A stretch of DNA of 64,000 bases from Podospora anserina (Eukaryota): contig CM030337.1 in assembly GCA_017654855.1 (NCBI GenBank), forward strand, positions 434,001-498,000, in the 5' to 3' direction. The notes beneath the pieces were generated by a model. The model saw nothing but the letters and a program-made list of their open reading frames with translations, was not told the DNA's origin and ran no database searches. Both the position numbers and the translations under genes were made by a program. Positions within the stretch are counted from its first letter, which is position 1, and each line of letters opens with the position of its first letter. Positions 16,323 through 52,000 of the stretch are shown piece after piece.

Positions 16323-17988
16323 CGCGACGTGTGAGCCGATTTGCGATTGCCGGCGACAAGATGGATGGTGATGTGCTTGTACAGCGAGGTGCTGGGAATT
16401 GGAGTTGCAGGTTGGAGGAGCTGATGATGGTGCTGCTGCAACCAACAACCAGAGACGTTGGAGCTGGCCCGGCCGCCGCGTGTCGGCAAAGCTTCGGCAG
16501 GCAGCGCCGCTCCTGTAACAGCCACCGCCAAGCCTTCCTGGATGCACCCCTGGAGTGTGACGTCAACTTACACGGCTCCTTCTTTTTGGTTTTGCAAATG
16601 TAGTGTTTAGGGGCAATGAGGAAAGAGACATAAAGATGATAGGTCCTAAGGAAGGCAGTATAGATGTCCGTATCAGAAGTGGCAGAGCAACTAGATACTG
16701 ACAGCAGGTTCTCATCCCAAATCGAAATAGATATTATACCCAACCCCAACCCCGAACCATGTCAACGCGATCAAGGAGCATGGTCCAAATTGAGCTCGAT
16801 ATAAATAACGTGCATGATAAGCGAGCGCCGCAGATAAGCGAGCGCCGCAGATAAGCGAGCGCCGCACTTTTCGACGCGACCTAACCCTCCACCTTTAACA
16901 TTCCATTTCTGAACCAAAAACCATGTCTTCTACCTCTAACGAAACTAAAGTAATTTTGGCCGCTAAAGTTATAAAAAATAATAAAAACCTAAATAAACGA
17001 GCCTCAGTAAAGATCTATAAAGTTAACGATAAAATTATTTGCCGTCGACTTACCGGTATACCTGTACGACGCGATACTCTAATTAATTTGCGTAAACTTA
17101 TAAATTTAAAAGAAAAAACGATTATTTAATATATAATTAAGCTATTTATATATATATTTTATTCCCGGCTTTTATATATAAAAAATATAATTAATTAATT
17201 ACTATATAAATATAATACGCCTCTTATTAACGTATAATAGGCTTATAACTTTATTAAACGTTAATTAAAACTTCGGATACGTTTTATATATAAATATAAT
17301 TATTAAAGAACTAAATATAAGGATTTAAAAATTATTAGTAAGTAATTTACTTTCGTACGGAATATTAAAATTAAATATAATATTATAAATAATAATATTT
17401 ATAATTTTGTTAATGTGTGGGTACTACTAAGTGCCTTACTTACTGCCCTACAGATTGATATTACAGTGGGCAGTACTGCTATAAGCAGTAATAGAACTTC
17501 CCGGCTTAGATCCCTTTAGAATGTTTTTTATAAGGGACCCTTGAAGGCTTACAGGGCTACTGTGGCCTAAGGCTTAGTCAACAGGATACTAGAACCTTTT
17601 AAAGTGGCTACAGGCTTACGTAGTAAGTCGCCATAATAGCATAATTTACAGGGCACTTCTGCTGCCGAAGGTTCTATGGATTTCCGTGAGTCTACACTAG
17701 ACCCACCTAAGCCCACCAAATACCCTAAAGTGGTATAGGGGCTTCCAGGGCCTACAGGACCCACAGTAGGCTTACGAAGGCCTATATATAGACCTTTCCT
17801 CTCTCCTGTAGAATAGTTTTCTTTCTTTCCAAAAGGGCAAAAGCTTAAGGCTAAGGCCAAAGGCCAAGGCTAAGGGTAATAAAGGCAATTCTTATTCCTT
17901 ATACCTCACTATATTACAGTGCTTTACCTTCCTTCGGCACTGCCGTCGTATCCTCCCGCTTCCGCTTGCGCACTGCTGTATTTTACAG

Positions 17989-18482
17989 TGTCACAGTTAA
18001 CCCAACGGCAGGTCGCGCCACATGTGGGGCGCAGGTCGCCCCTAGCCAATCATTCAGGAAGTCAGGGAACAAGCCGATCAGGGCTAGGCAAAAGTGCTAT
18101 GGCGCCAAGGCTCACGAGCAGTCTGCAGGATGCAAGATGCTAGGGATGATCAGAGGTATAGCACGACGAGCATAATGCAGATGCAATGTGCTAGGAGTAA
18201 TTAGAGGTATAGCACGACGAGCACAATATAGGATATAATGTGCTAGGAGTGATTGGGCCTATAGTAGGGCAAGTACCTTACGGCCCTAAGGTCTATATAT
18301 ACGGAGGAACTAGCTAATATAGATAGATAGTTCCGTAGTATATAATTTAAATTTATATTTACGGTAATTAATATTTATATTAAAATATTTTATTATATAT
18401 TATTTAGTTATACCGAACTAATTATTAAAAATTACTTTTAATTAGTATCCCTTTTAAAGGTTCTATATAGAGATTCGTTATA
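17989..18482 (+). repeat. 5' LTR of the 7.3-kb Gypsy element
   Basis: Begins TGTCACAG; aligns with 24834-25327, differing mainly by C>T/G>A transitions. Confidence 0.92.
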
Positions 18483-21400
18483 CGTTATATACTTACTTTA
18501 ACTCTATTACGGATAAGTTAAAAGCGTTTTTTCATTATTATAGCTTAACCCGAAAACGTTTAAATAGGAAGCGTCCCGCCTAACCTAATTATCGAGGGAC
18601 TTTTTACGGCAGACGTTAGGTTTAGGGTTATTACGACTTAATAGTTTATTAATTATATTAAAGAACTTAAAGCCGAAGCCTAGTAAACTAGGGAACAGGT
18701 TTTTATTCTCTCGGCAGCTAGGCCCACGTACGTAATTAAGTTCCCGGTACCGGAGTACTATAGAAGCGGAAAGGTAGAGTTTAAAGGTTTCTTAATCTAG
18801 TTTAAAACCTACTTTCGTTATTACCCGGAATAGTTTAATACGGAGGAGTCGAAGGTAATATATATAATTACCCGGCTTAAAAATAAAATTTTTATTTAAT
18901 TTAAATTTATTTTTAATAATTATTATAAAATAATAATAAAAGATTAAAAAAAAATTATTATTTAGTATTTTCGGAGCTACCGAGCTTTTAAAATAAAGTT
19001 TAAGGAAATATTTAAAGAATATAATAAAGGTAGGCGTACGTAAAAGAGGCTTACGAACTTACGGTAAATACGTTTAATAACGGAATACGTTATTTAGTTT
19101 AAAATTAATAATTTATGTAACGAGATTAACGATAAGGGGTTAATATAAACTTTTTATAATAGTTTTAAGGAAGAAGTAAAGGATAAGTTATATAGGGAGG
19201 AGAGGCTTAATACTATTAATAAGTATATCGCTATAACTATACGGATCGACGATAAATAATTTTAGTATTGTACGGAGAAAAGAAATTATAATAATTAAAG
19301 TTATTATAGAAATTATTATTTTAACGATAAACGTAAATAGTAATATCCGATTATTAATTACTCCGGTATTATATATTCGGGATTTATAAATATTAATATT
19401 ATATAATAATAAAAGCTGTAAAGTTAAAGCTAAGGTAGAGATAATTATAAATATTTTAATTATAATAAAATAAAATACTTTAAAAAGGATTACCGGGTAT
19501 TTAAATAATTTAAATAGAAGAAAGAAGTCGCTATAATAATTATTATATTAAGGGAACCGAGGGTTGTAAAGGTTATAGTTATCGGGTACTAGTAAAGTAA
19601 AGTAATAAGTTTCGAAAAAAACTTTAATTAGTACGCCGAATAAAAGGAAGTAGAGTTTTAGGGACTATAGAAAATAATAAAAAAATTAAAGGTAAAGTAT
19701 AAAGAAAAAAACTTTTAAATATTAATATTTTAAAATCGATTAATATAAATTATTATAGAAATCGTTATAGAGGTTACTAAAAATAATAACGTTATATAGT
19801 AGGAAAAACTTATTAAATAAATAATATTAAAAAAGTAGTACGGTAAGTATAAGATTACTATTTTATAAGAAATATTATTATTTATAAAGTTTATATATAA
19901 AAGTTAGAAAAAATATTAGAAAAGTAAGAAAGTTATTAATATTAAAATCGCGAAGTTATTAAAAAATATATTTATATTTATATAGTATATATTTTATAAA
20001 GGAAATATAATATAATTTTATTTTAAATATTTAGAGTATCGGAAAGTACTTTAGTTTTAATATATTATATACGAATATATAAAATATTATTAAAATAAGT
20101 TACTATACGATTATTAGCCGTTTATATTAAAGTATATAAAATATTATATCGAATACGTAAATAGTTAAAATATAAACGATAATATATATTTTTAGAAAAA
20201 AATAATATTAAATTAATATTTAAATCTAAATTATATATTATATTTATAAAAGAAAGATAAACGATATTATTAAATAAAGGTATTTAAATAAACGATTAAA
20301 TAAAAAAACTATTATTAAATATATATACGGGAGAATATTAGGTACGTAAGAGACGGAAAATAGGAGGAAGTTAGGTAAGTATAATTAAAAAACTTTATAT
20401 TATTAAATAACCCGGAATAAGAGGACGCTTTTAAATAATATAATCGTTTAAAAAATAATTTACGGCCCTTTACGGGGGCCGATAACCTTTAACGAACTAC
20501 GAATAGTATTTTCGGAAGTATTAATATAAAGTAAAGGTATAGGATAACGACCCGGTACTCGTTAGCGAGGTTATTACTATATAGGGAAAAAATAAAAAAA
20601 ATAAACGTTTTTAAATTATAATATATTAAAAAAATATTTAAGTAATAATATTAATAAATAAAGGTATAAAGACAAACTTAATTTCGTTATAGTTTATATA
20701 TTAAATTAAAATACTATAGAAAAAAAAAAAAAATTATTATATAAGGATTATTTCCGACGTAAAAGGTTTATAAAGAAATATTATTTTTAAATATTATAGT
20801 CGAAGGAAAAATAATTTTAATTATATTTAATATTATAAATATAAAACCCTCGAAGGATATAATCCTAAAATAATTATAATATAAAAATTATAATTTAAAT
20901 ATCGATTAGAAGGATAGTAGTTACTTACGATTAAAAGAATTTTAAAAGTATTTAATTAACGATAAGAGATTAGGTATACGTATAGAGTAGAGTATAGGAT
21001 AAGCACCCTCTACAGTACTACCGTAAGGAGCTTAAAAAATAATAGTATACTCTATTAATATAGGTAGTAAGATCGAAGAAGTAGGGTTAATAACGTTAGT
21101 AAAGATATTAGAGGTTAATAAATATATTTATTATAATTATATAAAAAAAAATGAAAAAAAAGCGGTACTAATAGAATATCGAGGATACTTAGCCTTTACG
21201 GTTAAGTATTTAGAGGGACTTCTAGAGCGAGGACCGTAGGACTACGAAATTAAATTAAAAGAAAGAGCTAAGTTACGGCTATTTAAGGTTTATTATATTA
21301 ACGATAAATAAAGTAAGGAGCTACGGAAGTATTTAGACGAGAATTTAAAAAGAGGATATATTAAGGAATTTATATCGCTAGTAGGATACCCTATATTCTT

Positions 21401-24109
21401 CGTACCGAAAAAGGACAGTAATTTGCGACTATATATGGACTACCGCTAAATAAATAGAAAATAGCGTTTCGCACACTCTATAGTTATTTCGAATATCTCG
21501 TAATACTATTTGGGCTAATTAATACGCCCGTAACGTTTTAATTTCTCGTTAACTATATAATCCGGAAGTACTTCGATAAGATAGTAATATATTATTTTAA
21601 TAATATTCTTATTTATTTACGCACTTTAAAAGAGTATAAGCGATATATACGAAAGATACTCGACGCGCTATACGGAGCCGGACTTTTAATTAATAAAGAG
21701 AAAAGCAAGTTTTATATATAAAAGATAATATATTTAGGATATTTAATATCGTTAAGTAAGGTTCGTATAGAATTTAAGAAAATTACGGTAGTTAAAAATT
21801 AGTTTACGTTATAATTATAAATATACGTTAAAGAATTTTTAAGGTTTATAAATTTTTATTAGATATTTATTTATAAGTATATAGGTATTGCGCGGCTATT
21901 TAATTATTTAATTAAAAAGGATATAGAGTTCCGGTAAGGGCAAAAAAAAAAGTAAGCTTTTTAGGAACTAAAAGAAATTATTTTAAAGGACTTAGTATTT
22001 AAATTATTAAACCTTAGTCGATTATTTAAAGTCGAGGTAGATATATTAAATTATATAATTAGTAGATAATTAAAGTAGTAAAATAACGATAGTAAATTAT
22101 ATCCGGTAACTTTTTTTTTAAAGAAGCTCGAAGGGGTACGTTAAAACTATTTAATTTATAATAAAAAGCTATTCGCTATTATCGAAGCGTTTAAAGAATA
22201 AAGGTTATACTTTAATAATATTAAATATAAAATATAGGTTTATATAGATTATAAAAATCTATAATACTTTATTATTACGAAAGTCTTTAACGTATAATAA
22301 ATATAATAATTAAAGTTTCTCTCGGAATTTAATTTTTAAATTAATTATAAGAAGGGTTCGGAGAACGTTAAGGTAAACGTACTTAACTAGCGGGCTAACC
22401 ACTATAAAAATATACTTAGGGAATTACTATTATTATTTAAGGAGGCGCTAAATAGTATTTTTAAATATTTATTATAATTATAAATAAAGTATTACGTAAT
22501 ATATTATAAAAAAGTTATTTTTAATAAATATTAAAAGAAATTAAATAATAATATTATAAAATAATATTAGTAAGAAGAATTAAAACTATAAAGTATTTAA
22601 AAAGATAGTTAAGGAAAACTATAGTATAAGAATCGAACGTATATAATACTAAGTAATAAAACGATATTAATAATAGAAATTTATAGATCGAAGTTTAAAA
22701 GATATATAGGTATCGTAAAGATTATAGAAAAGATTAAATAGTACTTTAACTAACTAAAGATTAAAAACGACGTTAAGGAAACTATTTAATTATATTATAC
22801 GTATAAAAAAATAAAGATTATAAAATATAAGCTTTATAGATTTCTAGAGTTACTATTAATAATAAAATAATTATAAAATTTAATTATAATAAACTTTATT
22901 ATTAAATTACTAAAGTTTAAAAATACGGTAACCGGCGTTAAATATAATAGTATATTAACGGTAATCGATAGGTTTATTAAATAAATATATTTTTTACTTT
23001 ATAAAGAAATTTAGTCGGTAAAATAATTAACGGATATAGTATTACGGTATATTATATTAATATATATATAATTAAAAAAGTTTATTACGAACCGTAATAT
23101 TAAATTTATATTAAAGTTTTAAAGAATATTAATAACGAAGCTAAGGGTAATAAGTAAAATATTTTTAGCCTATTACCCTTAAACGGACGGTTAGACGGAA
23201 CGGTTTAATTAAATTATAAAATAATATTTACGGAATTATATTAATTTCGAATAAAACGATTAGGTTAAACTATTATTTATAGTATAATTAATATATAATA
23301 TATTATTAATTAAAACGATTAAAACTATACCGTTCTTTATAAATTTTAAATATAAAATAAATTTACGGTAAGGACTTAATATTAAAGTATTTAGGGTTAA
23401 GGTTAAAATAAATAAGCTATATATATTCTATAATAAGTTTAAATAAAAACTAAAGTTTATAAGGGAAAGGATACGGAAATATTATAATACTAAAAGGCTC
23501 GAGGGACCTCGCTTTAAAGAGGGGAATATAGTATTCTTTTTTATACGTAATTTATATATTAAAAAACCTAATAAAAAGCTAAACTATAGGAAAGTAGGCC
23601 TATTTAAAGTTAAAAGGAAAATTTTAAAAATAATATTTAAATTAAAGCTATTTAATATAATATATTTACGATTATATACCTTTTATATTTTACTTTTAAA
23701 ATTTATATTACCGGTAAATAAAGTTAATATATAAATAATAGTGGAGGACGAAAAAAAAAAATATAATATAAAAAAAATATTAGATTTATAGTTTAATAAA
23801 GGTTAATTAAAATATTTAATTAATTAATTAGGATATCCAGTTATAAATAATTTATAGGAACTATAAATATACTTTAATTATCTAAATAAATAAAAAGAAT
23901 TTTATTAATAATATTTAAACCGATTAAAATTTAAATAAAAGAAACGAGTTTTTAGATTACCGTTAAATAATAATAATATAGAGACTGGAGAACCTTAATA
24001 AAAATCGAATTTACGTTTTTAATATAATAATCGACGTACTATATATTATATTATAAAGTTAAAAGGTATAAAGGAAATTAAATATAAATAGTATTACGTA
24101 TTTTAATTA

Positions 24110-24700
24110 CTTTAAGAAATAGAAAGTATATTAGCGGCGGTATTTTAAAAGGTTAGGAAGGAAGGACCGGCTACGCCCGGGTCTAAAGAAAAGTTAAGCG
24201 GCTAGTCGAAGCCTAAAAAAGGATTTAGGAAAGAAAGATCGGAAAGAATAATAAAAATGTCCGCCGCCGGCGGGCTATATAGGGTAGTAGGCCGCGTAGA
24301 AAACTCTCTCTCTTCCTCCTTAAAGAACCGAGATTCGCGACGGAAGGTAGTAAGGGCTCGAGCCTTAAAGATACGCGATTACACTTCGAAACGAAAAAAC
24401 TTATTTAAAGTAATTTATTTTTCGGTATTTAAACGTTTTTTCTCTTTAATTAAAGAATAAATTATAAAGATAATTAAAAAAGGGAAAGGAAAGTTAAAAA
24501 AAAAATTTATAATTTACGCTATAAACGTTATAATAAAAACGATTTAAATTAATATACGGGAAGTACCGGTTATATTAAAGGGAAGTTATGTATTAAAGGT
24601 TATTTTCTTTATAATAAATATATTCGGGTATAATAAAATTAAATTTCTTAAAAAAATATATTTAATTACGGCGACGGTTAATATTTATACGAATCGATTT
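24110..24700 (-). pseudogene. RIPed antisense accessory ORF of the 7.3-kb element: Zn2Cys6-like cluster, probable intron, coiled-coil-like segment (limits approximate)
   Basis: TAT/TAC codons (RIPed TGT/TGC) at spacing x2, x6, x8, x2, x6-7 over 24622-24530; GTAAAT donor-like site at 24517; downstream frame reads KARALTTFRRESRFFKEEEREF. Confidence 0.6.
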
Positions 24701-24833
24701 TTTTATATAATTAAATATAACGGCTAAAATAAAAGAGGAAAGGAATTTATAATAGAAATATAAAAAAAAGGGGGATCGATAATTATTTTAGGAATATAAT
24801 TACCGGAACGTCGACCTAAAAAGAAGGGTATTA

Positions 24834-25327
24834 TATTATAATTAATTTAACGGTAAGTCGCGCTATATATAGGGTGTAGGTCGCCCCTAACTAATTATTT
24901 AGGAAGTTAGGGAATAAGCCGATTAGGGCTAAGTAAAAGTATTACAGCGTTAAAGCTTATAAGTAGTTTATAGGATATAAAATACTAAGGATAATTAAAG
25001 GTATAGTACGACGAGTATAATGCAGATATAATGTGCTAGGAGTAATCAGAGGTATAGCACGACGAGTATAATGCAGGATATAATGTACTAGGAGTGATCG
25101 GGCCTATAGCAAGGTAAGTACCTTACGGCTCTAAGGTCTATATATACGGAGGAACTAGCTAGTGTAAATAGATAGTTCCGTAATATATAATTTAAGTTTA
25201 TATTCACGGTAGTTAGTATTTATATTAAAATATTTTATTATACACTATTTAGCTGCACCGAACTAATTATTAGAAGTTACCTTTAACCAGTATCCCTTTT
25301 AAAGGTTTTATATAGAGGTTCGTTATA
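24834..25327 (+). repeat. 3' LTR of the 7.3-kb Gypsy element
   Basis: Starts TATTATAATTAATTTAACGG, the RIPed form of TGTCACAGTTAACCCAACGG; same length as the 5' LTR. Confidence 0.92.
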
Positions 25328-25793
25328 TACAGTAACCCTATATAGGTTCTATATTATAGGCCTATCAGGGCTTACCAACTAACAAATTTTAATAAAATTA
25401 GGTTTATAATAAATATTATTATTATTATTATAGTTATTATAATTTTTAATAACCGTAATAAAATTAAATAAATTTAATTTAATAATTATAAATAAATTAC
25501 GGTTATTTAAAGCGTAAATACTTTAAATTAAATTATTTTATTATTTATTATTTTAATTAAATAATATTATTCTATTAATTAATATTAAAAGTATAGCTTT
25601 CCGGCTACTTAATATATTATAATAATTAATAATAATTAAACTATTAATAAAAAAATATAAATTAAATTCGATATTTCGATTTTTATATAGTATTTTATAT
25701 AAAAGGTAAATATCGGTTATTAATTTTTAATAATTATAAAAATTATTATTCCGAAAAATTTAAAATTTATTATTAAAAATATAATATTATTAT

Positions 25794-26156
25794 TAGTTTG
25801 GGGTGCGGCTACAGGCCTAAGAGTATGAGTAAGGAAGCGGGGCTCTTAGAGGACTCAGGGGTTCAGGGGTCATGTATATAAGCGGTCTGCTTCGGATATT
25901 CTATTTTAAATAGGACATCGACTTTTATTCTTTTCTTCGTATTTTATGCCTTACACGCGTGCAGGCAATTCTGGCCCTCTAATTAGGCTAATCCGGTGCT
26001 TATTATATAGCTTACGAGCCTATAGTGTTTTTTCTTTGTCCTACGTAAAGTGCGGCCTGCGAGCGAGTTACTGTTATGTAGATATGTTTATTCTGAGACC
26101 TGTTGAGGGTATATTTATAGTATTATAGTTATTTTATATATTTTCTTACTATTTTA
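25794..26156 (+). repeat. 5' LTR of the 11.6-kb element
   Basis: Direct repeat of 37065-37427; starts tagtttgggg (RIPed TGG...), has a TATA-like tatataag. Confidence 0.92.
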
Positions 26157-29100
26157 AATGGAGGTTATGCCCGGGTTAAGTAAAGTTTAGGGTCTAAACT
26201 AGATTTATAAGCCCTAGGTATTAAAGGAAGTGCGAAGCTACGAACGATAATAAATACCGATAACTTTATTAAACTTCGCGAGGTTTAACGGAAACGATTT
26301 TTCTCCGTTTAATCGGATAAAACTTTTTTATTATCGATTAAACTTTAAACTTTTTACTCGCGAGTAAAGAATTAAATATATAGTCCGGATAGGACCGGAA
26401 AATAAATTAAAAGTATTAATTAAAATTAATTCGTTAATAAACTTTATTTCTATATTAATTATTAAAATCTTTTTTTATTTTTAATTAGGAGGAATTTTTT
26501 TAGTATATTATTTAACGATAATAAATAATCGTAGGGATTTCTGGGTTAATTTAATTTAGAATATCGGGAATTTAAAAGTAAAAAAACGAAAATACTTTCC
26601 CTTTAATTTAAATAAATATAATTTATATTTATATATTAAAGTTATAAAGGATAATTATTTTTATATTTTTAATAATATATATAAAAAAAAAATAATATTA
26701 TTAATATAAACGTAATAGTAATTATTAAGTATTAATATATTTAATAATATTTTATTTATCGTTTTAATTAATTTTCCCGGTAATAATTAAGGGTATTAAG
26801 CTTCTACGGCTCGTTCCGTAATAAAAATAATTATTCTAGTGGCTAAGTCCCCGGAATTATTATTATTCGTTCTTTCCCCGGCTACGAACCGCGCTTACTT
26901 TAAAAATATTAAAACCCTTCGCCCCCTTTTTAATTAAAGTAGCCCGATTATAAAGCTTAACGCTCTTAATATATTAGGTAGACCTTATACTTACTTAAAT
27001 TCTATTATTTAGAATTATATTACGCCTCCTATTCGGTATACCGGATATCCCACTTTTTTTCCTAAATTCGTATATTAATTTTAGTAATCCGGATATTTAT
27101 ATTCTATAGGAGTTTACCCTAACTATCGTTACTTTTAGGGGTCCCCTACGTTTAATTATTTAACCCCCTATTTTATAATATTTATATATTTTCCTTAATA
27201 TAAATTCTTTAATCTAAAAAAAATTAATTTTAAAAGTAATTTTAAAAAAAAATATTTTATAAAATATTTAAAGTATTTTAAAAATATTTATAAAAAATAT
27301 TATATTATAGAATTTACTTTTTATATTTATAAATTTAAATTTTAATATAATTTCGATATAGGAAAATAGATTAACGAATATATAAATTTATTTATATTTA
27401 CTAATATTTAATTTATTTTAATTATTTACTTTAAACGTTTTTTTAAAATTTATAATTTTTAATAAAATAAAAATATTTATAAAGAATTAAATAATTTTTA
27501 TATTAAAATTATTTTTAAAAATATAAGTAAATTAAAAAAAATTATTTTTAATTATTTTAAATTATTTTCTCGAGTACCGACCAGGGAAAAAAAGGTAGTA
27601 AGAGCTAAGGTTATTAATTACTTTTAAATAAAATTTTTCGAATTAATAAAAATAATTTTTATTAACCGAGGAGGATCCGAATATTATTTAAAATTTATAA
27701 ATTTTATTATTTAAAGCGATTAAATTAATAATATAATCGAAAATAAGTATAATATAGGAGGAAGAATTTATAAAGAAAATAAATTAATTATTATACTTTC
27801 CCTTACTACTTTTAATTAAACGGCCGAGGTATTTAATTAGTATATAGCGGTTAACGCTATAATAAATAAAAAGATAGTATTATAATATTTAAAGGTAAAT
27901 ATTTATAATAGTTTTTTTATACCGGGAAATAATAAATTTAGGATAATAAAGACCTACGTTTAATATTTAAAAGATTAAGTATTTTACTTTTTAAATTTTA
28001 ATATTAACTTTAATAAAAAAATAGATTTATTTTTTAATACTTTTTTTATTATTAATATTAAAATTTAATTCGGAAAATTAAAGGGATAGTACCGCGATAG
28101 TCCTTCCTTATTAAAAAAGTATTTTTAGTATAGTAAAATTAATTATTATATTAAGTCGACGGAATATCCGTAGAAAAAGTATAATAAAGCGTAAAAATTA
28201 TACTATATTAAAGGAGGTAAAGTATATATCGGTAAAAAAAAGTAGCCGGAAAGTAAAAAAATATAATTTAATTAAAAGGATATAAGGAAAGCGTAACGTA
28301 AAAGGAAGGTTAATAATTTAATTTATATTATAATTTCGTTAAAATTAAAATTAAATAAGGTTTATAAAGTTTATATAAAATAGGTTAAGTATTAAGAAAT
28401 TTATAAGGGTAAAAGATATAAGTCCGAAGTTTTTTTAATTAAAGAAAGGGAATAAATAATTATTTAAATAATTAGGGTTATAAATATTAAATTAAATAAA
28501 CTTTATAAATATTTTAAATTTTATATATTATTTAATAAAAATTTAATTAATAATTATATTATTAAAAATACTTTATAATATTATTTAGTAGAGAAATAAT
28601 TATTTAAAAATATTTTAAAGCGCTTTAATAATATTTTAATAATCGTTTATAATTAAAAGGTGGAAATAGGGGTAGGCGCGTAAAGAGTAAAAAAAATAAA
28701 GATCGAGGATTTACCGAAAGAGAATATAAATAATTTAGTTTTAATTAAAAATCTAAAAATAATATTTACCCCCGCGTAAAAAAAATTAAAAGTAATTAAA
28801 GAGGGAGTTTTATTTAATTAAGGAAATAAAGTCCGGAGTAATTTAAAGTTATTTAATAATAAAGTAAAGGACTTTAAGGATTATATTACCGAAAAAATTA
28901 AAAAATATATTTATAATTAAATTAAATTTATATTAAAAAAATATTATAAAATTTTATTTATATTTATTTATTAATTAATAAATTATATAAAGAATATAGT
29001 TAAGGATATTAAAGTAATTAAGTAGTATAGATTTTTTAAAAGTATTCCGGATAGAAAAAGAGAAGTTTTATAAAAGGGGGAGGCTTTATTATTAATGGTT

Positions 29101-32100
29101 TAAACGAATTTTTAAATAATTAAATATAATAAAACTTTTCTGTTTAATTAAAAAAAAATTATTTTTACTTTATATAGGATTACGGCGGATAATAAGTATA
29201 GTATAGTCGAGGAAGGTATTTAAAAAAAGATTATTAAAAGTAAAGTTTAACCGGGTAATAATTTAAAAGAGCGATTACGGACTTTACTATTTACGTTTAT
29301 TAACCGGCTTTCCGGTAATAAACGAACTTTTTTAAAAGCCGTTACTCGAATCTATAACGTTCTATCGCTATATTATAACTTCGTTTTACTAATTTTAAAG
29401 AAGGTATTAATAATATTAAATATAGGTTCGGAGTATAATTTAATTAGTAAGGTTATAATTAAAAAGTTTTATTTATTAATAATATTAATAAACCTATAGT
29501 TTAAAAACTTTTATAGAAATCCGGTTATATTTATAAGTAAGATTTAAATTTTAATAATATTAATTAGGGTTTTAATTTTATATTATTTTTTTATTATTAA
29601 TAATACTAAAGTTTTAAGTTTTTATAATTTATTATTAAATATTTTATTTTTTACGGATATAAATTTTATTTTTAATTTTATAAAGGGCTATATAATTAAC
29701 GCGAATATATTATATAAAGGAAAATTAATTAAAGTTTATATAGTAAAAAAAAAGGTAATTAATAAAATAAAAGCGGAATATAATAGTAAGGATCGAAGTA
29801 ATATTTTTTTTATTAATTAACCTTTATAGGTATTTAAGGGATTAATTAATAAAAGAATATTTATTTTTAAATAAATAACGGAGGAGTTAAAAAAAAGGAA
29901 TAAAGTAATTAAAGAATTAAATAAAGGAGTTAAACGTTTTTTATTTAATTTTATTTTAAAAAAATTAAATTTATTATTATTAAATTATTATTTAACGTTT
30001 AATATTATTTTTTATAAAAATAAAAAAAAGGGGGATATTAAAAGTAAAGGAGGAAAAAATATTAATAATTAGAAGGAAAGAAAGAAGGGAAGTATAAAGG
30101 ACTATTAAAAAGAAAAGTCTTTATTTTAGTTTAAAAAAATAAAAATTATAATAAAAACTTTAATTTTAAACGAAATTTTAAAAAAAGAACGACCGTTATT
30201 ACCGACCTTTATAATAGATTTATATTTAATACTATCGTTATTATTATTAAAAATATTATTATTATTTAATTAAAGGATTAGTAAGATAATTTTATTTAAG
30301 CCCGATATAATATTTTTATATTTAAAAATATTTAATTAGTTTTTTATTTAATTAAATTAATATAATTTTTTTATTATATAATTATATAAATATTATTTAT
30401 TTCTATCCTTTTTTAAAAAAAAAATAATATAAAAATTAATTTAATTATTATTTTTAAATAAACTTAACTAACGTTTATAAATATTATTATTATTACTATA
30501 ATATATAAAAAGGTAAATAAGAAGGTAAAGCCGGTTAATAATATTAGGTTAAATAGTAATACTTTTAAAAAAAATCCGAACTAAAAAGTAAGGAGATAGG
30601 CGGTAATTAAGGAATCCCTATAATATAGTTTAGAATTTAATAATATTATAGTTCTTAAGTTTTTTAAAATAATTAAAAGGTTATATTTTACTTTAAAATA
30701 TTTAACCGATTTAATTAAATAAACTATCGATATTTTAATAAATTAGGAGGTTAAAATATTTATAATAATTTTATTCGTAAAGGAGGCTATATTAATATAA
30801 GACTTTACTAAATATAAATAGATTTTTAAAAATTTTTTCCTTATTTAATATATTAGGATTATCCCTTATAAAATATAGTAAAATAAATTTATTCCGATCC
30901 CGAAATTATTTATAAAAAAAATTATTAATTTCTTTAAAGAATAAATTAAAAAAAATATTATTAAAGAAGCGTATAGTCCTTACCGTAATAATTAATTCCT
31001 AATAAAAAAAAATAATAATTTCCGTTTAATTAACGATATTTAAAAATATAATAAAATTATATAATAAAATACCTTTATTTTATTAAATATTAAGGAATTT
31101 AATAAAGATTTTATAAAATACTTTATTATTTTTTTACTTAACTTTTTTTTTAAATATAATTAAATTAAATTAGCTTTAATAAATTAAAATTTTACTATTT
31201 TTATAATATTTATTAGTTTATTTAAGATATATATTTTACTTTAAGGAGCTATTAACTTAATAGTTTAGTTTTAAAGAATTATAATTAAAGTTTTTTAAAA
31301 TTTTATTTTATAAGTATATTGGTTATATTTAAACGATATTATAGTGAAAGGGCTAAAGTAAAATTATAATAGTAAAAAAGAAAGGTTAGGAATTAAGAAA
31401 TAGATTCTAAAATACTTAAAGAATATTAATATAGTTTTACTTAACTATAAACTTATAAAAACTATAATTATAATTATAAAATCCTTTTAATATAAACGGA
31501 AAGTTATTATCCTTAGCTATTCCTATATACCGGACGGGCGCCTCCTTAATTAAATAAAGATAGTAAAGATAAAGGAATAGCAAATTTACTATAGTTTTAA
31601 AGATATTTATATTTTTTTAGGGATTACCGGTTACTATCGGCTATAGGTATTTCTCTTTAATCTAATTATAATTCCGCTATATTTTTTAATAAAAAAAGAT
31701 ATAAAATAAAAATAAATAGAAGTTTAATAGGGTATAATAAAGTAATTTACTTTTTTAATTATAAAAGTATTATATTTAATTTCTTTAACGTTTAATAACG
31801 ATTATTTTGGTAAAATCTTTATTATTTTTAATATAAGTTTAATAGAGTAAAGAACGGTAATTAAATAAGTAAAATCTAATAAAAAACGGTATCCTTATTA
31901 GTTTAAAAATAGTATTTAGAGCCCGGTTAAATAAAAGTATAATACTATTAAAAAGGAGTTAAAAGGATTATTATATACTTTAAGGAGATTTAAAAGGTAT
32001 TTTTTCGGGGTATACTTTATAGTAGAAACGGACACTTAAATAGTAGTTTATTAAGTTTAGGGGGCGGTTAGTAATATTCCCGGTACTTTAATAATAAAAT

Positions 32101-35100
32101 AATTAAAATAAATTAGATTTTTCGACTTTATAATTATTTATATTTTTAAGAGTAAAAACTTTATAATAAATATATTATCAAGAAAACTATTTAGCCCCTT
32201 TAATTTAAAGGAAAAAAAATTAAAGTTAGATATTAATAATAAAGTTAACGTAAAGATCTAAAAGAACGATATTTAGGAAGTAAATATTTAATAAATAAAT
32301 ATTAAAAAGAAAAAAAAAGAAGTTATTAAGTAAAGCCCCTACTTAAATAGACTATAGTTTTTTTACTCCTATACTATCGCCGAGTTTTTTACGATTAGTA
32401 CGGAGTTAAGGGCTAAAACGAGGTTTAACGTTTAAATTATTAAGAATAACGCCCTAAAAATAATTTTCGAAAACGGAGTTTTATTTTTTAAATTAAATAA
32501 AGGAGGCTTTCCCCCTAAAAGAATTATTAATCTTTTAATTAAGCGGGAAAGAGTTTTTAATATATATTATAACGAAATAAGCTATAAAGGACGGAAAGTT
32601 ATTTATACCCGAATAATAAAAAACTATTATTAGAAAGGTATATATATTAACGTCGAAGTTTAAATTAAAATATATAAATAATATTAATAATAAAGCCCGA
32701 AACGTTAAAAGGATTAATATTTATATATTAAGTTTTTAATTATTTTATTTATAAAATAATATTTAAACGTTTAGTTTTTATTAATAGTTTCGGGAAAAAA
32801 AACTTACTTTTTAAAAGTAAAGAATAATTTAATTAAATATTTAAAAATAAAAGTTTTAAACTTAAGTAAGGCTTTTAAGATTAAAAATTTTATTTTATAC
32901 GATATTATCCTTAAATAGGGTTACCTTTTAATCGTAGTAATAAATAGCGGATTAGAATTTAAGAAGGAAGCTATTAAAATTTTAAAGAGGTTAGGAATTC
33001 TTTAAATAATAGTTTTACTTTATAACGTAAAAGTAAATAAAATAACGGAGTTTAATTATATTTTAATTATATTAATATTAATAAAAATAATAAATAAAAC
33101 GGGGAAAAAATAAAAATAGTAACTCCTTTATATATTATTTATTAATAGGATTATAATATAAAATATTTATAAGTATAATACTTTTTATTTAATATATAGG
33201 TTTAATTTTATTACGTTAATCGAAAAGGATATACCGTTATAGAAAGTCGTTTAATAGGAAAAAATTAGTTTTAATAGATTAAGGAGATACTAAAAAGAGA
33301 AAGCGATTATAGATTTAATAGAGGTAAGGGTAAGATTATTAAAATCCTAGGAGATAAATCTAACTTTAGTAATTAAAAGGGTTAGTATAGTAAAATAGAA
33401 AGCCGCGGTAAAAAAGAATAAAAAAAGGATTTATAATATTAAGCTTAAAAATAGTATAATTAAAAGGAGGGACTTAATATTAATATATAAAATAAATAGA
33501 AAGTTAAATATAAATATAGTAAGGAAGTTATAATACTATTAGGACGGTCCTTTTAAAGTAAGGAAGGTTAAATTAAATAATACTTATTACTTTTTAAAGA
33601 TACTAAATAAAATACTATTACGAATTTCTTATATATTAAATAGGGTAAAAAAAATTTTTAAATTAAAAGATATATATATAAATAAAAAGGATATAAATAT
33701 ATAGTTAGGACTAAAGAAAGTTAAGTAAGTACTTAGGAATAGAGTAAAGGAAAGTATAAATATAGTAAAAAATAAGGATAAAGAAAAAAAGATAGTAGAA
33801 AAAATATTAAGGAAAATAATAATTAGGGGGAAGATTTAAATAAAACGGAAAAATATTAAAGTATAGAAAAGATTTAAAAAGGGTAAAAGTATAGAGGTAA
33901 TTTTAAAGAAAAGTAAATTAAAAGACTTTTTAGGTAATTAGGGGAAAACGATAATAAAAGTATTATAATTATTATTTTTCTTTAAAAGGGTATTAAAGTT
34001 TGTATTATAAGAATAGAGCTATAAAAGCTATTTATTTTTAAAGGAAAGAAAAATATTAAAGGAAGTAATTAATTAAAGTAAAGATTATTATATTAAATTT
34101 TTAATTTTTTTTTTTTTTTTTATTATTTTTTTTTCTAATTTTTTTTTTATACCCTTTCCTTTAATCTAAAAAAATAAAAGATTATTTTTTTTCTTTTTTC
34201 TTTTCTTTCTTTTTATTTATTTACTATTTTTTAAACTTTTTATATTTAGTTTATTATTTTTCTTACTTTTAATCCTAATTAACTTCCTTATTATTAAAAA
34301 TTAAGTTTACGGTATTACAATTTAACTTCGATAACCTATTACTATTAAAATCCTTAAAATAAGGGCTATCTTTATTAATATTAAATTATAAGTAATAAAT
34401 ACTTTTATATTAATAATTCCTATATTTCTAATCGAAGTCCTCTTTTCCTATATAACCGAAGTATAATTATATTACTTTAATTTTAATCTTATCGGGGAAT
34501 ATTATAAAAGACCGGCGATAATTTTAATTATATTTATTATATAAATTAATATAATTAAATCTAATATATTAATATTAAGCTAAATCTAATTAGGGGGGCG
34601 GTATTTATAATAATTTAATAGCTTAAATAAATAAATTTTTAAAGTAATAAACTTATTTAACGATTTCGAAAAGTTAGTGCCCGAAGAATTATTTATTAAA
34701 CTATTTAATAAAAATCCGTTTAACGGAACCGGTCAATAATATTTTAAAAATATAATTAATAATAGTTTTATTCGTATTAATATCCTTAAAAAGTAATTAT
34801 TATTTTTTTTTATTTTCTTTTTTCGTTAGATTAAGGAAGAATTATTTAAGGTAGAGGGGAGTAGTTACGTATTTAGGATTTAGAAGGGAAATTTTAAAGT
34901 ATAATAAAGTTAAAAACTTTTTCGATTTAATTAAAAAGTTTTTTAACGAAAAAGGTTATAGATATTTAAATAGTAAAGTCGTTAATCGCTTAATTGGATA
35001 AAGTAATAAGTTTTTTTAAAAAAAAAGTTATTAGGAAAAAACGGTTAATAAATATTAAAAAAAATAAGGAGTAAACGGGAATAAAAAGAATTAGTATAAA

Positions 35101-37064
35101 TATTTATAATTAAAGGATAGGACGGTACGATTAATTTTATAAACTTCTATAAGAAAGAAACTTATTAAAGTACTTTTTCCTTTTTAAACGGCTTACGTAA
35201 CTATCTAATAATCTTACTTTATAAGCTAAATAAATAATAGAAAATAAAGATTTATTAAAAAAATTTTTCCTTCTTTAATTCTTTATTTTAAAAAAATTTT
35301 TTACTTCCCTTTCGATAACCCTTTAATTATAGATTATACTATATATTATTCCCTCTTAATTTTTATAAAATAATATTATTAATACTTTTTATAAAATCTA
35401 TTTATAATATATTATAGAAAGAATTTATTACTATTAAGAAATTCGGTTCTCTTAATAATTTCGTTAAAAAGATTATTCGGAAAGCGTACCTTTAAAGTAT
35501 TAATAGGGTCTATAGCTCTAGTCCCCCGCGCGGTATCTTCCTTCCTTAAAGTAATAATATTTTTTAACCTATTCGTTTTAGCCTTAACTTAATTACCGAC
35601 TTAAAAAATTATATTATAGGAAGGCGGCCCGATTAAATTAATATTACTTTTATAAAATAATTTTCGATTAATATTATTAAATATTTTTTTTAATTTAAAA
35701 ATAATAACCCCCCTTAATCGGATTTATATTTATAATATTTATATAACTTCCTTTACTTACACTATATATAATCTTTAAAATTAATTAAAAACTAAATAAT
35801 AATTTATTAACTCGGTCCTTACTTACGTTTTTCGGTATTTTTTTTAAGGAATCTTTAAACGTTATATATAAATCTTTAGAGAGCCTTTAAACCCTATTAT
35901 AATAAAGTCATTAATATATTTTTTTTTATTTAATAATAATTATAATACTTTTAATTAATAATATTAAGTCTTTCTTATTTATATTAATAACGGAAGTTAT
36001 TAGGTAGTAAGTATTTACGATATTACTATTAGTATTTTAGTTTATATAGATTTATTAAAGGATTAAAAGGGGTATTAAATTAATATTATTTTTTATTTAA
36101 TATTTTATATTCGTTATACTTTTTATTATAATTTTAACGTAAAAGTAAGGAGGCTAGCTTACGGTAAATAGGGCGGAGCGTAAAAATATAATTTTTAGGT
36201 TTTAAAGTATTATTATATTTATTTTTAGGGAGGTATTTCGTACGGTAAAGAGGAGGATTTAATAGTAGTAAAGGCTTAGAGAGGAAATTATTATTATAGA
36301 AATTATAAGACTATAAGCGTTACGGGGAAAAAAATAATAAAGTTATAAATAGTTTATATAAAAAGGTTTTTAAGTTATAAACTTAATTAAAAGGTATATA
36401 ATAAAAAATAAAGGAGGAAGGGTTTGGAGGATTTAATAAATACGGAAGGATTTAATTTATTAAATACCCTTTCGTTTTCTTTTAAATCTCTATTAATTTC
36501 CCGGTTTATTTTCCTCCTTAATTCTTTATTAACTTTAATTATTATTATTAAAGGAAATAAATATATTATAGGTCTTCCTTTTAATTATAAAAGGTTTAAA
36601 TTAAATAATATATTAAATAACTTTTAACGATTAAATAGAGTAATAACTCCCTTTAAGTTCCGTACTTTTATAATAATAAACTCGCCGTTCCTTTTTAGGT
36701 TTATAATTACCCGTTCCTTTATTTATAATTACTTAAAATCGTTAATAATATATTTTTCGCTTAATTATATACTTAGTTTTATAAAATAGGAGTAAGCTCC
36801 TAAAATTCTTTAAAGACGAAGGGAGGAAGTCGTTAAGTTACTAATTATAATAACTCGATAGGGACAAAAGTATATTTTAAAATCCGAAAAGTAAAGATAC
36901 TTTTCTCTCTAATTAAAGAAAAATAGATAAAGGGATAGCAGGATTATATCGTTTTCCCTTTTTTCTACTAAACGATATTTTTTTTTTTTTTAGTTTATAA
37001 GGGATTTTTTTCTTATATACGTATTTACCCACTGGTTTATAGTAGTTAAATGCGAAGGGAGGTT

Positions 37065-37427
37065 TAGTTTGGGGTGCGGCTATAGGCCTAAAAGTATAAA
37101 TAAGGAAGCGGGGCTCTCAGAGGACTTAGGGGTTTAAGGGTCATGTATATAAGTGGTTTACTTCGGACATTCTATTTTAGACAGGACATCGACTTTTATT
37201 CTTTTCTTCGTATTTTGTGCCTTACACGCGTGCAGGTAATTCTGGCCCTCTGATCAGGCCAATCCGGTGCTTATTATGTGGCCTGCGAGCCCATAGTGTC
37301 TTTTCTTTGTCCTACGTGAAGTGCGGCCTGCGAGCGAGTCACTGTTACGCAGGTGTGTTTATTCTGAGACCTGTTGAGGGTATATTTGTGGTGTTGTGGT
37401 TGTTTTGTGTGTTTTCTCACCATTTCA
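37065..37427 (+). repeat. 3' LTR of the 11.6-kb element
   Basis: Ends ...catttCA; 363 bp, same as the 5' LTR. Confidence 0.92.
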
Positions 37428-49095: not shown

Positions 49096-52000
49096 TCAGG
49101 TAAACCAACCTGGAAGTGTTCGCTTCTCGATTATGTTGACAAGCTCCTGCAGATCTTTCGTCACGATTTTTTCATTCCCTAGAATCTGCCCAAGGTAGTC
49201 TGGATTGTCTGCATCCTCCAAAGGGTTTTCAATGTTGAAGACGTTTTTCATCCGTTCACGGAACTGAGTCCGTTTTTTCCGGTCTTCCCCCGTGAGTGCT
49301 GCCTCGCCCCCGTTGTTCTTGATCTGCTGTTCATACATGGCGAGGTGGAGCCAGAGGCTGGTCTGATGGAGGATCTTCTTGATCTTTGCAAGTTGCTGTT
49401 GGGCTGTAGACAGTGGGAAGAAATTAAAGTTAGTACGTAGGTTGGATGACCAGGAAATGGACCACATGTGGATCTGGTCCACCACCACCACACCAGCCAC
49501 ACAACCTTGTTGAGATTACCCCTGAATGATCACACTGGCCACAACAAGACTAATATTGGGTCAATTTCTATGGGAGTTATACCAAAATGTAGCTCAATCA
49601 CTGTCAGAGTCAGACATTGCATCTGCTTCTCGCTTGCGCCTGGTTTAAACCCGATGACGTGCGCTGCGCCGCACAGGCTGGGCTGGCTCTAGCTGCTCCA
49701 CATCCTCCTTGGCTACCACTTCTTCCTCCACCACCCTCCCTTCAATGCGGGCCTCTTCCAGTTCACAGAGCCTCATAAACTTGGAATTCGAGTCTTTTCT
49801 ATTCAACTTACGCCTTTTTCTTACCTCCTGGGCCTTCTGGGCGTTCTATTAATACCTTGCCGCATCAGCTTTGTGGATGGATGCCTCAGATCTTAGTGTG
49901 AGTATAGTACTGGTGAGAGTCCTTGCCGCAAGCCGTTTTCCGGCCGGCGTATGGTTCTTGAGTAGGTCCCTGACCTTCTTGGCCACCTGGGAATCCCCCA
50001 CGGTATGGAAAGTAGGTGTTTTTAAAAAGAGATCTAACGGCACCACAGGGACTATCACTTAGCTTAAAAAGAGCGGTTTACGCCTACGCATGGGCCATAA
50101 TCCTATCCTACGCTAGCCGCCGGTAATATTTTCTTTCCTAAAGCCCTACTTACGGGTAAAATTATATAGCCGGACTAAATCGACTTTGCTATTAGGCGTA
50201 TAATTAATAAGGGCGTCGTTTATAATTATAAACCTCTTATATACCTTCTTTATACTAAAAAAGTAATTAATATTAAAGGGTTAAAGGACGTAAAAGTAAT
50301 AGGGGGGTAGAAAAAGAAGGTAAATATTACTTCTATAGTACCGAATTATAAAGTCGTTAATAATATATAAATTATAATTATTATAAATAAGAAAATAGGA
50401 TTTTAATAAATCTTTAAGTTTAATTTTTAATATAAAAACCTTTTTAAGCTAATTAATAGTAAAGTTATTACTAATTTAACTATTCTTTAATATAATTATA
50501 TACTAGTCCTTATTTAATTAATCCTTAAACTATTATTTTTAAAGGTCTTTACTTTTAAAATTAATTTCGGGGAAAAAAACTCTCCCGTCTTATAAAATAT
50601 ACTTAAGTATAGTAATCCAGATCCTTCTTCCATTCTATTTAATATATATAAATTTCTTATCTTACTTCGAAAATTTAATAATTAAACCGTTTTTTCCCTA
50701 ACTTTCCATTATACCTACTTTATCGTAGTTATACCTATATCTAAATTTAATCTAATTAACGGTAAAATATAAATTAAAAAACTTATTAATATTTTCCGAG
50801 GTAATTTCGTTAACTCTAACGTAATTAATTTTCTTTTTAACCTTTATTTTAATATCGGAATAACGGCTAATAAAATATAATACTTAGTACTTACTAAGGG
50901 GGTTAAAATTACTTTATTTAATTAGTAAATTAACTACTAAAGCTTTTATATTAATATAAGTAAGAGCGTAGTTAAGGCTTTCCTAATAAAGGATCTATTA
51001 AATAATAAAATCTTTTTAGCCGTAAGAAAGTCGCTATTGGTTTTCATGGGTAAGGTTCCTTAATAAGGTACTATTAATATAATGCTTTAGGGTGGAACGT
51101 GGAATCCCGTGCTTATTGGACGCTTTTCGCTAGCTTATACCAGCGGCAATGTCTTTCTGGGCATTTTTAATATCCTCCTCGGTATATTTGGCCATTGTTG
51201 GGTATCTGGAGCAAAAAAAAGTAAAAGAAAAGCTTCATTTTTGGTCTCTGTGGGTGGAATATAAAGTGTGTGTTGATATCGGGGGGCTTTCGGAGGTCCA
51301 GGGTTATGGAGGGTTTAATGTGGGTAGATGGCTTGGGTAGTTCAAACTTACCTGGGCCACATCCATATGTGGTCCACTTCCTTGTCATCCAACCTATCGC
51401 ACACGAAGTACGAGGCAATATGAGTGGTAGCAGACAGGAATGGGAAGCTCAGGGCATTTCTGACTTGCCTTGTTTTGCCTTGTTTCCGTCGTCATTTCGA
51501 TGCCACGCCTTACACGAAGAGACTTCCACACCTGCACTACCTACTACCACCCTAGCAACACTCGTAGTCACTTTGACTGTGGTTGTTGCGGTTGCCCACC
51601 ACACAGTGTGACCAACAAGGTACCAGCCACCAGCCCCTGTGACGGTTCCCACAACCACAGCTGTGGCAATCCACGACCACTTGGACCATCGCTTCGAATT
51701 TCTCTCCACTGTTGCAAGTGTGTACAAGTTTTCCACCTCTTTCAGTGAGTTTCCGAGGGTATCGATTGCGGTTTGAAGTTTTACTATCCGGCTCGCTGCC
51801 TCTTTCTTTGTTCTTACTAGACAGTCAGGTCCGTTCCTGCAAAGATTCTGGCAAAAAGAAAAAAAAAAAAAAAAAAAAACCGACGGCCATATCAGGTAGG
51901 TAGGTAATTACCTTCGTCTTCCCTGCATCGCACTTGTCGAAAGGCTTGATTCACCTCATATTGCATTTTCTCCAGCTTCTGGGCTGATTCGTTGATCCTT

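Follow-up and report, generated by a model that had tools for sequence, protein, structure and literature searches.

A probable antisense accessory gene with a Gal4-like cysteine cluster in a RIP-degraded Ty3/gypsy chromovirus of Podospora anserina

Antisense accessory genes of long terminal repeat (LTR) retrotransposons are known from plants and deltaretroviruses. Among plant Ty3/gypsy elements, Retand, Grande and RIRE2 are described as carrying antisense open reading frames (aORFs), with a TRP28 domain, between pol and the 3' LTR (PMC11963269). Within the species complex of Podospora anserina, the LTR retrotransposon reported as most abundant is crapaud (Westerberg et al. 2024, PMC10787394). 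Here we consider a 64,000-nucleotide (nt) stretch of P. anserina DNA (contig CM030337.1, positions 434,001 to 498,000; hereafter the window, whose own numbering is used), which contains a Ty3/gypsy chromovirus of 7,339 bp, with pol on the plus strand, degraded by repeat-induced point mutation (RIP). We suspect, with a probability of roughly 80%, that positions 24718-24106 on the minus strand are the RIP-destroyed remnant of an accessory gene of this retrotransposon's own, located between pol and the 3' LTR and running opposite to gag-pol.

The proposal of such a gene goes back to a preliminary description of the window, which quoted minus-strand codons from 24631 (ATA CCC GAA TAT ... TAT AGC, then GTAAAT) that match the DNA letter for letter. 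It placed them in a gap of about 0.9 kb; the interval is real, and its extent is 0.8-0.9 kb, because pol homology ends at 23912-24040 and the 3' LTR starts at 24834. Six TAY codons (Y, pyrimidine), with first bases at 24622, 24613, 24592, 24565, 24556 and 24535, lie in the putative relic of a first exon (24518..24718, minus strand) and stand at the spacing that cysteine codons have in related elements; two in-frame TAA codons lie among them, at 24595 and 24577. The pattern C-x2-C-x6-C-x5..12-C-x2-C-x6..8-C is present as such in intact relatives, and in the window only if TAY is read as RIPed TGY. At 24718-24716 we place a probable start codon, now ATA, followed by a basic N-terminus (IFNYIKKS...) that recalls MSGRIEKKS in the intact relative L016; ATA and F-N-Y-I-K-K-S can be derived by RIP, codon by codon, from M-S-G-R-I-(E)-K-K-S. 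The window copy is dead, its ATG having become ATA and its six Cys codons TAY, with several TAA besides.

A second relic (24106..24455, minus strand; ends approximate) reads …SLIKEKKRL…KARALTTFRRESRFFKEEEREFSTR…PSFL… with 4-5 RIP stops and would correspond to the coiled-coil and C-terminal part of the protein. The charged helical segment KARALTTFRRESRFFKEEERE of the preliminary description is present there, at about 24363-24301, in another frame than the codons from 24631, and this frame is the one that matches the coiled-coil and C-terminal half of the relatives' proteins. Because the similarity of the two exons lies in different frames, a short intron is probable at 24456..24517 (minus strand), with a donor-like GTAAAT at 24517-24512; its 3' border is not fixed and no acceptor can be named.

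The evidence for the gene comes mainly from related elements. As bait we used the integrase-chromodomain fragments nearest the window, whose RIP-compatible fraction with the window codons is 0.73-0.82 (0.60-0.69 for others), and their alignment (A2) fetched 80 loci from metagenome contigs. These represent a family of fungal chromoviruses, with intact copies and RIPed ones that have up to 47 stops. L011 and L016 are intact, with 0 stops in 737-796 aligned Pol residues and GC contents of 0.56-0.58, and L016 is a circularly collapsed whole element, its last 99 nt being identical to its first 99 nt. In L016, the minus-strand DNA that separates the Pol stop (4111) from the LTR reads ...MPCSFCHSKGLRCKMIERSSRCGECVRRGRSCDGSG..., or C-x2-C-x6-C-x8-C-x2-C-x6-C. 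Its antisense ORFs occupy 4672-3984, the polypurine tract (PPT) and the LTR start lie 119 nt past the ATG, and the 3' end of the gene overlaps the final 128 nt of pol on the opposite strand.

Of the loci, 59 have at least 1000 nt downstream of the integrase-chromodomain match. In 48 of these, a hidden Markov model (HMM) built from seven intact antisense proteins matches the minus strand in the first 2 kb of this DNA; the 11 loci without a match are the most RIPed (GC 0.35-0.45). At least eight diverged subgroups carry the gene. In L016 as in the window, it lies inside the element, from pol to the 3' LTR, on the opposite strand, and its occurrence in most copies and in diverged lineages does not look like a one-off transduction. 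That the antisense ORF is a host gene beside insertions, or a host fragment transduced once, is hardly credible given its position between pol and the PPT and LTR across those 48 loci and many subgroups, its presence inside the circularly collapsed L016, and the overlap of its 3' end with the pol frame there.

The relatives' proteins are 185-227 residues long and have a basic N-terminus, six cysteines spaced C-x2-C-x6-C-x8/9-C-x2-C-x6/7-C, a long helix with a conserved RLRKQK-like motif, and an acidic/aromatic tail. Four of the cysteines are invariant and the other two occur in 10/11 sequences in an alignment of 11 proteins (A3), and all six are invariant in one of 13 (A4). Pairwise ratios of nonsynonymous to synonymous substitution rates are 0.076-0.249 in six intact pairs (0.011-0.133 for the first 80 codons alone), compared with 1.10-1.61 in eight shifted-frame controls (four pairs, two frames each). 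The antisense gene of the relatives exists, is conserved and is under purifying selection. The central proposal of the preliminary description, an antisense accessory gene, is supported by a conserved open frame in intact relatives, by selection, by place and by the profile match described below. The spacing obtained there by restoring Cys is that of the intact L016 cluster, and the relatives' open antisense ORFs have TGY at the six positions. Neighbours of one relative's protein in the ESM Atlas (scores 0.93-0.95) are Ascomycota 'hypothetical protein' clusters that have no common Pfam family.

In subgroup A, the gene has an intron of the form GT..CTRAC..YAG, in phase 1, nine codons past the last Cys, and 50, 51 or 56 nt long (in L016, L011 and L064/65). 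The spliced frame is open at all four loci and the unspliced frame closed at three of them. These signals mark the intron as spliceosomal-type, and it would be removable only from an antisense transcript; it fits the earlier suggestion that antisense orientation could let an intron survive retrotransposition, the frame being kept only by splicing. A simple search gives a clean intron model in 4 of 11 loci, the others carrying RIP stops or other motifs, and subgroups B, C and E have no intron. Of the intron first proposed for the window, a short canonical counterpart behind the cluster stands in subgroup A, and the borders in the window itself cannot be fixed.

The distance from the start codon to the first base of the LTR is 89-141 nt in 12 of 13 relatives and 115 nt in the window. 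Within the roughly 120 nt between antisense ATG and PPT, a conserved non-coding stretch, …GTTGGCGGTATTTGAAAC…, is seen in L016, L011, L049, L004 and L028, with a variant in L029. It could be the 5' untranslated region or promoter of the antisense gene, or a cis element of the sense RNA.

RIPed relatives illustrate how a cysteine cluster may come to read as tyrosines. Over 66 loci with the Cys/Tyr pattern, a few of which may be spurious matches in other frames, the six positions hold TGT 126 times, TGC 100 times, TAT 121 times and TAC 49 times. Nearly all loci with GC of at least 0.5 have Cys throughout, as do L066, L069/70 and L051 (GC 0.43-0.47), and four heavily RIPed group-J loci (GC at most 0.42) have Tyr at all six positions. 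RIPed copies thus show TGY→TAY at exactly the six cluster codons, in a graded manner. The heavily RIPed L067/68, L073 and L076 have the all-Tyr pattern, with similar loops, at the same place as the window, and YITTLGTNRY in L073 may be set beside YITSL*YNRY in the window. L067/68 was considered as a less-RIPed copy of the window element and rejected: its whole spacer aligns (z about 6), with 145 transversions in 919 columns and an all-Tyr pattern, so it does not de-RIP the six codons.

The window can be linked to these genes by two RIP-aware comparisons. For exon 1, ten intact clusters were combined in an ungapped profile, which was scored under a RIP mutation model against 300 column permutations per position and scanned over 17989-37400 in six frames. 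Of some 38,500 positions, the register with its first Cys codon at 24622 scores highest (z 5.42), and the runner-up has z 4.37. Significance was taken from shuffles, the maximum-over-ancestors score and the global-background log-odds being biased by permissiveness and by the GC-richer LTRs. For exon 2, RIP-aware local alignment gives z 7.0 with L004, 6.5 with L028, 6.1 with L011, 4.5 with L072 and 3.8 with L016; the observed scores are reached by 0 of 300 query shuffles, and examples of aligned segments are KEEEREFSTR with REEAEALATRE and PSFL with PSFL. Across the AT-rich block that surrounds the element, the exon 2 position ranks first of 954 windows with L004.

Several results count against our reading and are gathered here. 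Taken alone, the six-Tyr pattern is at chance level: Y-x2-Y-x6-Y-x5..12-Y-x2-Y-x6..8-Y occurs once in the six frames of 18500-37000, where 400 dinucleotide shuffles have 0.27 on average (22.5% with at least one) and local shuffles 0.49 (37% with at least one). The same minus-strand stretch has four more TAY codons which, like the two in-frame TAA, the preliminary description left unmentioned. Of 28 TAY codons in RIPed pol, only one stands opposite a majority Cys in homologues, with 10 opposite Tyr and 8 opposite His. For the antisense gene, nothing was found by Pfam in six-frame translations of the window, by a word-indexed homologue search with the antisense GC-rich island, by a PDB search with the window translation, or by a plain hmmsearch of the window with the relatives' HMM. 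A codon model trained on RIPed pol, which measures mostly strand composition, scores the minus frames of the spacer like the antisense of pol (-0.26 to -0.36 bits/codon). Pairwise RIP-aware alignment of exon 1 is not significant (z <1), and the RIP-compatible fraction in global alignments, 0.40-0.52, is not above that of shuffles (0.46-0.47). With L028, exon 2 ranks only 4-5 of 954 by z, which is heavy-tailed.

Other copies of the window family add to these points. They were surveyed as contigs of four DNA runs aligned at 80% likeness; each site of the spacer is covered by about 4-16 contigs, and the family is multi-copy. Among 40 of the 886 rows of differences, nearly all changes are transitions, none gives a C at the six codons, and the other copies are more RIPed than the window at 24519, 24526/7 and 24625/6. 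Because RIP is saturated there, the family contigs cannot separate Cys from Tyr at the six codons, and it is from related elements that we infer Cys at these positions of the window family, all family copies compared being RIPed. TGY in an open antisense frame, which the preliminary description had asked of less-RIPed copies, is found in intact copies of related elements.

From these results one could argue that the spacer is an untranslated 3' region, PPT plus filler, that AT-rich RIPed DNA merely invites the eye to see a pattern and a helix, and that the family lacks the gene. The pattern count at expectation, the extra tyrosines and the stops within the motif, the blank standard searches and the rare origin of pol TAY codons from Cys would all fit, as would the published diagram of crapaud, which shows GAG and POL only, in a paper whose available part does not use the word 'antisense' (PMC10787394). 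We nevertheless regard this explanation as improbable. The pattern rises above chance because of its place and its register relative to the homologous genes in related elements: the best profile position is exactly this register, the adjoining downstream segment matches independently on the same strand, the distance to the LTR is conserved, and the four other heavily RIPed relatives show the all-Tyr pattern. From the local-shuffle mean, about 0.004 patterns would be expected per 300 nt of a single strand (0.49 x 900/111,000).

Other readings of the spacer were rejected. The only start-codon ORF of at least 25 residues, a 67-residue frame at 24257..24460 on the plus strand, is judged an artefact; most other copies have ACG in place of its ATG (24258 T>C, in 4-5 of the roughly 5-7 contigs of each run). 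An extension of Pol on the sense strand is not supported either, the continuing plus frame being without a homologue past nt 24040. A degenerate DNA pattern of the GC-rich island had 0 matches in the metagenome contigs, and in a BLAST search with purine/pyrimidine recoding composition noise swamped any signal. The RNA fold of this island (24130-24400) has z +1.0, and nothing was found in Rfam over 17800-25500. Elsewhere in the AT-rich DNA, the RIPed segments 28131-28638 (minus), 29510-30017 (plus) and 33051-33558 (minus) score z 5.9-6.4 when aligned to C-terminal halves of the relatives' proteins, at low raw scores, and may be AT-content noise or relics in a neighbouring element.

What the encoded protein resembles can be judged from the intact relatives. 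Zn2Cys6 domains hold two zinc ions and typically bind CGG-type half-sites as a dimer, and the order of cluster, linker and coiled coil is that of Gal4, Put3 and Ppr1. The Zn_clus family of Pfam (PF00172) has a gathering threshold of 21 bits, and exon 1 of L016 scores 10.6 bits (E 0.66); matches at E <=1 are obtained with 5 of 11 full-length relatives, the best at E 0.037, and the six-frame translations of the window give no Zn_clus match. Against the PDB, 7 of the 9 matches of the cluster profile at E <=10 are Gal4, Lac9, Leu3 or Cep3, all at E >=0.14, and the profile aligns all six Cys to Gal4, Lac9 and Leu3. The AlphaFold2 model of the L072 cluster segment has a predicted local distance difference test (pLDDT) value of 75. 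In a Foldseek search with this segment, ranks 1-23 among the matches listed are all Zn2Cys6 domains, including Pho7 (E 0.076, probability 0.98), Ppr1 (root-mean-square deviation 1.5 Å over 34 columns) and Lac9 (TM score 0.65). The preliminary description had suggested a Zn_clus scan and structure prediction as checks; the scan stays under the threshold, and the predicted folds show some likeness to Zn2Cys6 domains such as those of Pho7, Ppr1 and Gal4, followed by a long helix.

In the full L004 model, this helix spans residues 78-153 with pLDDT 88-98. The helix, of about 75 residues, is likely a dimerising coiled coil; a homodimer prediction with two copies of L004 residues 30-160 speaks neither way (score 0.02). 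The tail of the relatives' proteins (DFVPLWD, VVDWNAVFD) is disordered and acidic/aromatic. Taken together, these comparisons suggest a protein that acts in the manner of a Gal4-type cluster with a coiled coil behind it. We call it Gal4-like and leave family membership open; the sequence alone stays below the Zn_clus threshold.

The likeness to fungal Zn2Cys6 factors (Gal4, Ppr1, Put3, Hap1 and Pho7) lies in the shared Cys spacing, the best fold matches, and a predicted build of two short helices, each past a C-x2-C, then a linker and a coiled coil. The relatives' protein differs from them in a loop of 8-9 residues between the third and fourth Cys (6 in Gal4), in being very small, in having no fungal-specific middle homology domain, and in scoring below the Pfam gathering threshold; it is encoded by a mobile element, whereas the fungal factors are encoded by host loci. 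A six-Cys module could also be a zinc or disulphide module that does not bind DNA, with RNA, Gag, integrase or a host silencing factor as its partner and the coiled coil as a scaffold. The Gal4-type spacing, the 23 top listed fold matches to DNA-binding domains, the alignment of the six Cys with Gal4, Lac9 and Leu3, the order of cluster, linker and coiled coil, and the repeat arrays that adjoin the gene all speak against such a module, which we consider unlikely, and favour a DNA-binding protein.

These arrays consist of heptamers, in both orientations, in the U3 part of the relatives' LTRs: the heptamer is GGATCAC in subgroup A (8-9 copies), ACGATCC in L004 (8), ACGTTCC in L028 (5) and CCATCCC in L078 (7), and TGCTCAA and GTGCTCA are present 4 times each. 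They were seen at 4750-5100 in L016 and at the same place in L011, L064, L004, L028, L078 and L029, about 200-400 nt upstream of the antisense start codon. We consider them candidate binding sites. The U3 of the window element has a tandem repeat of 51-52 bp, in 2.1-2.5 copies, at 24972-25111 and also at 18114-18276. By eye, TGATC-type cores can be made out in its units, reminiscent of the GTGATCC repeats in subgroup A.

A mechanism can be outlined from these parts. With the start codon some 120 nt inward of the 3' LTR border, the promoter has to be in or at U3, and antisense transcription would begin in or near the U3 of the 3' LTR, roughly 90-140 nt upstream of the start codon. The encoded protein would bind zinc, dimerise and recognise the subgroup-specific heptamer arrays, and may in this way drive or restrain the LTR promoter together with its own; most likely it would activate. 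Overall, it may be a self-encoded regulator comparable to Tat, Tax and HBZ, or to Gal4. DNA binding, the LTR as target, and expression are putative parts of this scheme.

The data are silent on the sign of regulation, and the protein may be a DNA-binding regulator of another kind, one that represses the element or brakes its copy number, or one that counters silencing or serves in targeting. We hold this to be a serious though less favoured possibility. Antisense transcription through the 3' end of pol, where the two genes of L016 overlap, could itself hinder the sense RNA, and the acidic/aromatic disordered tail, on the other hand, looks like an activation region. Our preferred reading is an activator of the LTR. 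Extended to the whole group, it would mean that an ascomycete chromovirus clade, including the dominant Podospora retrotransposon, encodes a miniature antisense Gal4-type factor that reads subfamily-specific U3 heptamers, the two co-evolving as a private pair; we put this forward tentatively, as a doubtful but specific proposal. If true, co-evolution of factor and site would explain why LTR families split into subfamilies precisely in U3, and hundreds of solo LTRs could wire nearby host genes to an element-encoded regulator.

The element's 5' LTR of 494 bp (17989..18482, plus strand) begins TGTCACAG, its 3' LTR lies at 24834..25327, and the target-site duplication TACAG is found directly outside them at 17984..17988 and 25328..25332. 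The LTR pair is 84.2% identical over 486 nt, and the ends read TG..TA, in which TA is explicable as RIPed CA. The PPT, AAAAAGAAGGG (24818..24828, plus strand), ends 5 nt short of the 3' LTR start, where relatives have GAGGAGGGGCA before TGTCAC. Between the LTRs, RIP-degraded gag-pol occupies about 18600..23990 on the plus strand (borders approximate, from Pfam with stops read as X and from HMMER), with reverse transcriptase at about 21509-21742, RNase H at about 21941-22225, then integrase, SH3_Tf2-1 at about 23522-23695 and a chromodomain to about 23930. The Pfam E values are 1.3e-13 for RT_RNaseH_2, 7.7e-12 for RT_RNaseH, 3.1e-07 for RVT_1 and 0.0078 for SH3_Tf2-1. The LTR ends, the 5-bp target-site duplication, the PPT and the order of reverse transcriptase, RNase H, integrase and chromodomain are those of a chromovirus.

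A word-indexed homologue search with the RIPed pol gave distant matches only, at 20-26% identity. With HMMER, the integrase-chromodomain part has 5,436 matches, every one ending by nt 24040, and the Pol/chromodomain homology stops at nt 23912-24040. Among the 157 domains matched in the best 150 of these hits, 125 reach the chromodomain and 0 are significant in the spacer, residue 413 being the last query position that a significant match attains; Pol homologues have a median of 34 residues left past the aligned chromodomain. Just past this end, at 23940-24031, family copies vary by indels, and in one contig per run (four runs) 90 nt are swapped for 27 others, so the 3' end of the antisense gene may differ between copies.

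The LTRs show some further features. The 3' half, from about 25134, is common to many more copies than the 5' half, as seen in sequencing depth and in loose ends at 25134. The first 200 bp or so of the 5' LTR (17989-18200) have a GC content of about 0.5, and their counterpart in the 3' LTR (24834-25050) is heavily RIPed; the 5' LTR lies at the edge of the AT-rich block, where RIP intensity falls. The element lies within another repeat: contigs that match from 25328 on are preceded by the sequence found before the 5' LTR (…GCGCACTGCTGTATTT), and an 'empty site' form is found alongside the filled one in all four DNA runs. Beyond the LTR pair, no further copies of the element were found in the window.

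The AT-rich block (GC 0.15-0.35) extends over 17-38 kb of the window, with gene-rich DNA on both sides. A flanking ORF for orotidine-5'-phosphate decarboxylase (pyrG), at 59400-60479, shares 99% identity with a protein cluster that takes its name from Cercophora samala, and its next relatives are other Sordariales, which points to a host in or close to the P. anserina group. A second pair of direct repeats (25793-26092 and 37064-37363; 300 nt, 90% identical, 11.3 kb apart) has no DNA-level relation to the first element and probably represents the LTRs of another, perhaps nested, element. An isolated AT-rich kilobase (50001-51000, GC 0.255) among normal genes may be a RIPed solo LTR or fragment. 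The only plain match to the cysteine pattern in the whole window, at about 11441 on the plus strand, is a run of TGC-type codons with a low-complexity poly-Cys translation.

An antisense accessory gene of this kind is apparently undescribed so far for fungal retrotransposons. No fungal counterpart and no transposon-encoded zinc cluster were found in titles and abstracts from full-text search, a scope outside which subscription journals, notes in repeat databases and supplements fall, and the words 'antisense' and 'zinc' have 0 occurrences in a survey of LTR elements in fungi. A zinc-cluster regulator encoded by the element itself would alter the annotation of fungal chromoviruses and would provide a hypothesis for the unexplained diversification of U3 among crapaud subfamilies, as well as a compact pair of transcription factor and cis element. 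More generally, genes can be recovered from DNA of about 20% GC when it is read with RIP in mind.

From its published description, and not from comparison with a reference sequence, the window element is probably crapaud of the Podospora group. The assignment is based on the host and the abundance of the family, on size and domain order, and on the extreme RIP and the behaviour of the LTRs. Both elements are about 7.3 kb long and have GAG plus a POL with reverse transcriptase, RNase H, integrase and chromodomain (PMC10787394). The crapaud LTR is described as variable in its 5' half (U3) and conserved in its 3' half, like the depth profile of the window family, and crapaud is heavily RIPed, with GC down to 14%, as the window element is heavily RIPed (PMC10787394). 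Putatively active copies free of RIP, with GC of about 54%, are also reported from the Podospora complex (PMC10787394). They differ in that the crapaud diagram has two ORFs only, with no antisense gene mentioned in the available part of the paper, whereas the window element has a probable antisense relic (PMC10787394).

The closest parallel to the gene itself is found in plants. According to the part of the plant study available, plant aORFs and the fungal gene share place and orientation, and both are conserved over copies and species (PMC11963269). The plant aORFs are likewise predicted to encode a DNA-binding or nuclear protein with a suspected regulatory role, as we propose for the fungal gene (PMC11963269). 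However, the plant elements are non-chromoviruses of the Tat/Retand group with 2.9-6.6 kb between pol and the 3' LTR, whereas the fungal spacer is 0.8-1.1 kb in an ascomycete host (PMC11963269). The plant proteins have TRP28 or other domains, whereas the fungal ones, of 185-227 residues, combine six Cys with a coiled coil and are unrelated to TRP28 (PMC11963269). One fungal subgroup has an intron of spliceosomal type, and the word 'intron' does not occur in the available part of the plant paper (PMC11963269). A more distant parallel is HBZ of human T-cell leukaemia virus type 1, which is cited in that paper. Although HBZ is a basic leucine zipper protein of a vertebrate retrovirus, with no sequence or fold relation to the fungal protein, the two would have in common an antisense gene at the 3' end of the element, transcription from the side of the 3' LTR, and a product that acts as a dimerising nuclear regulator.

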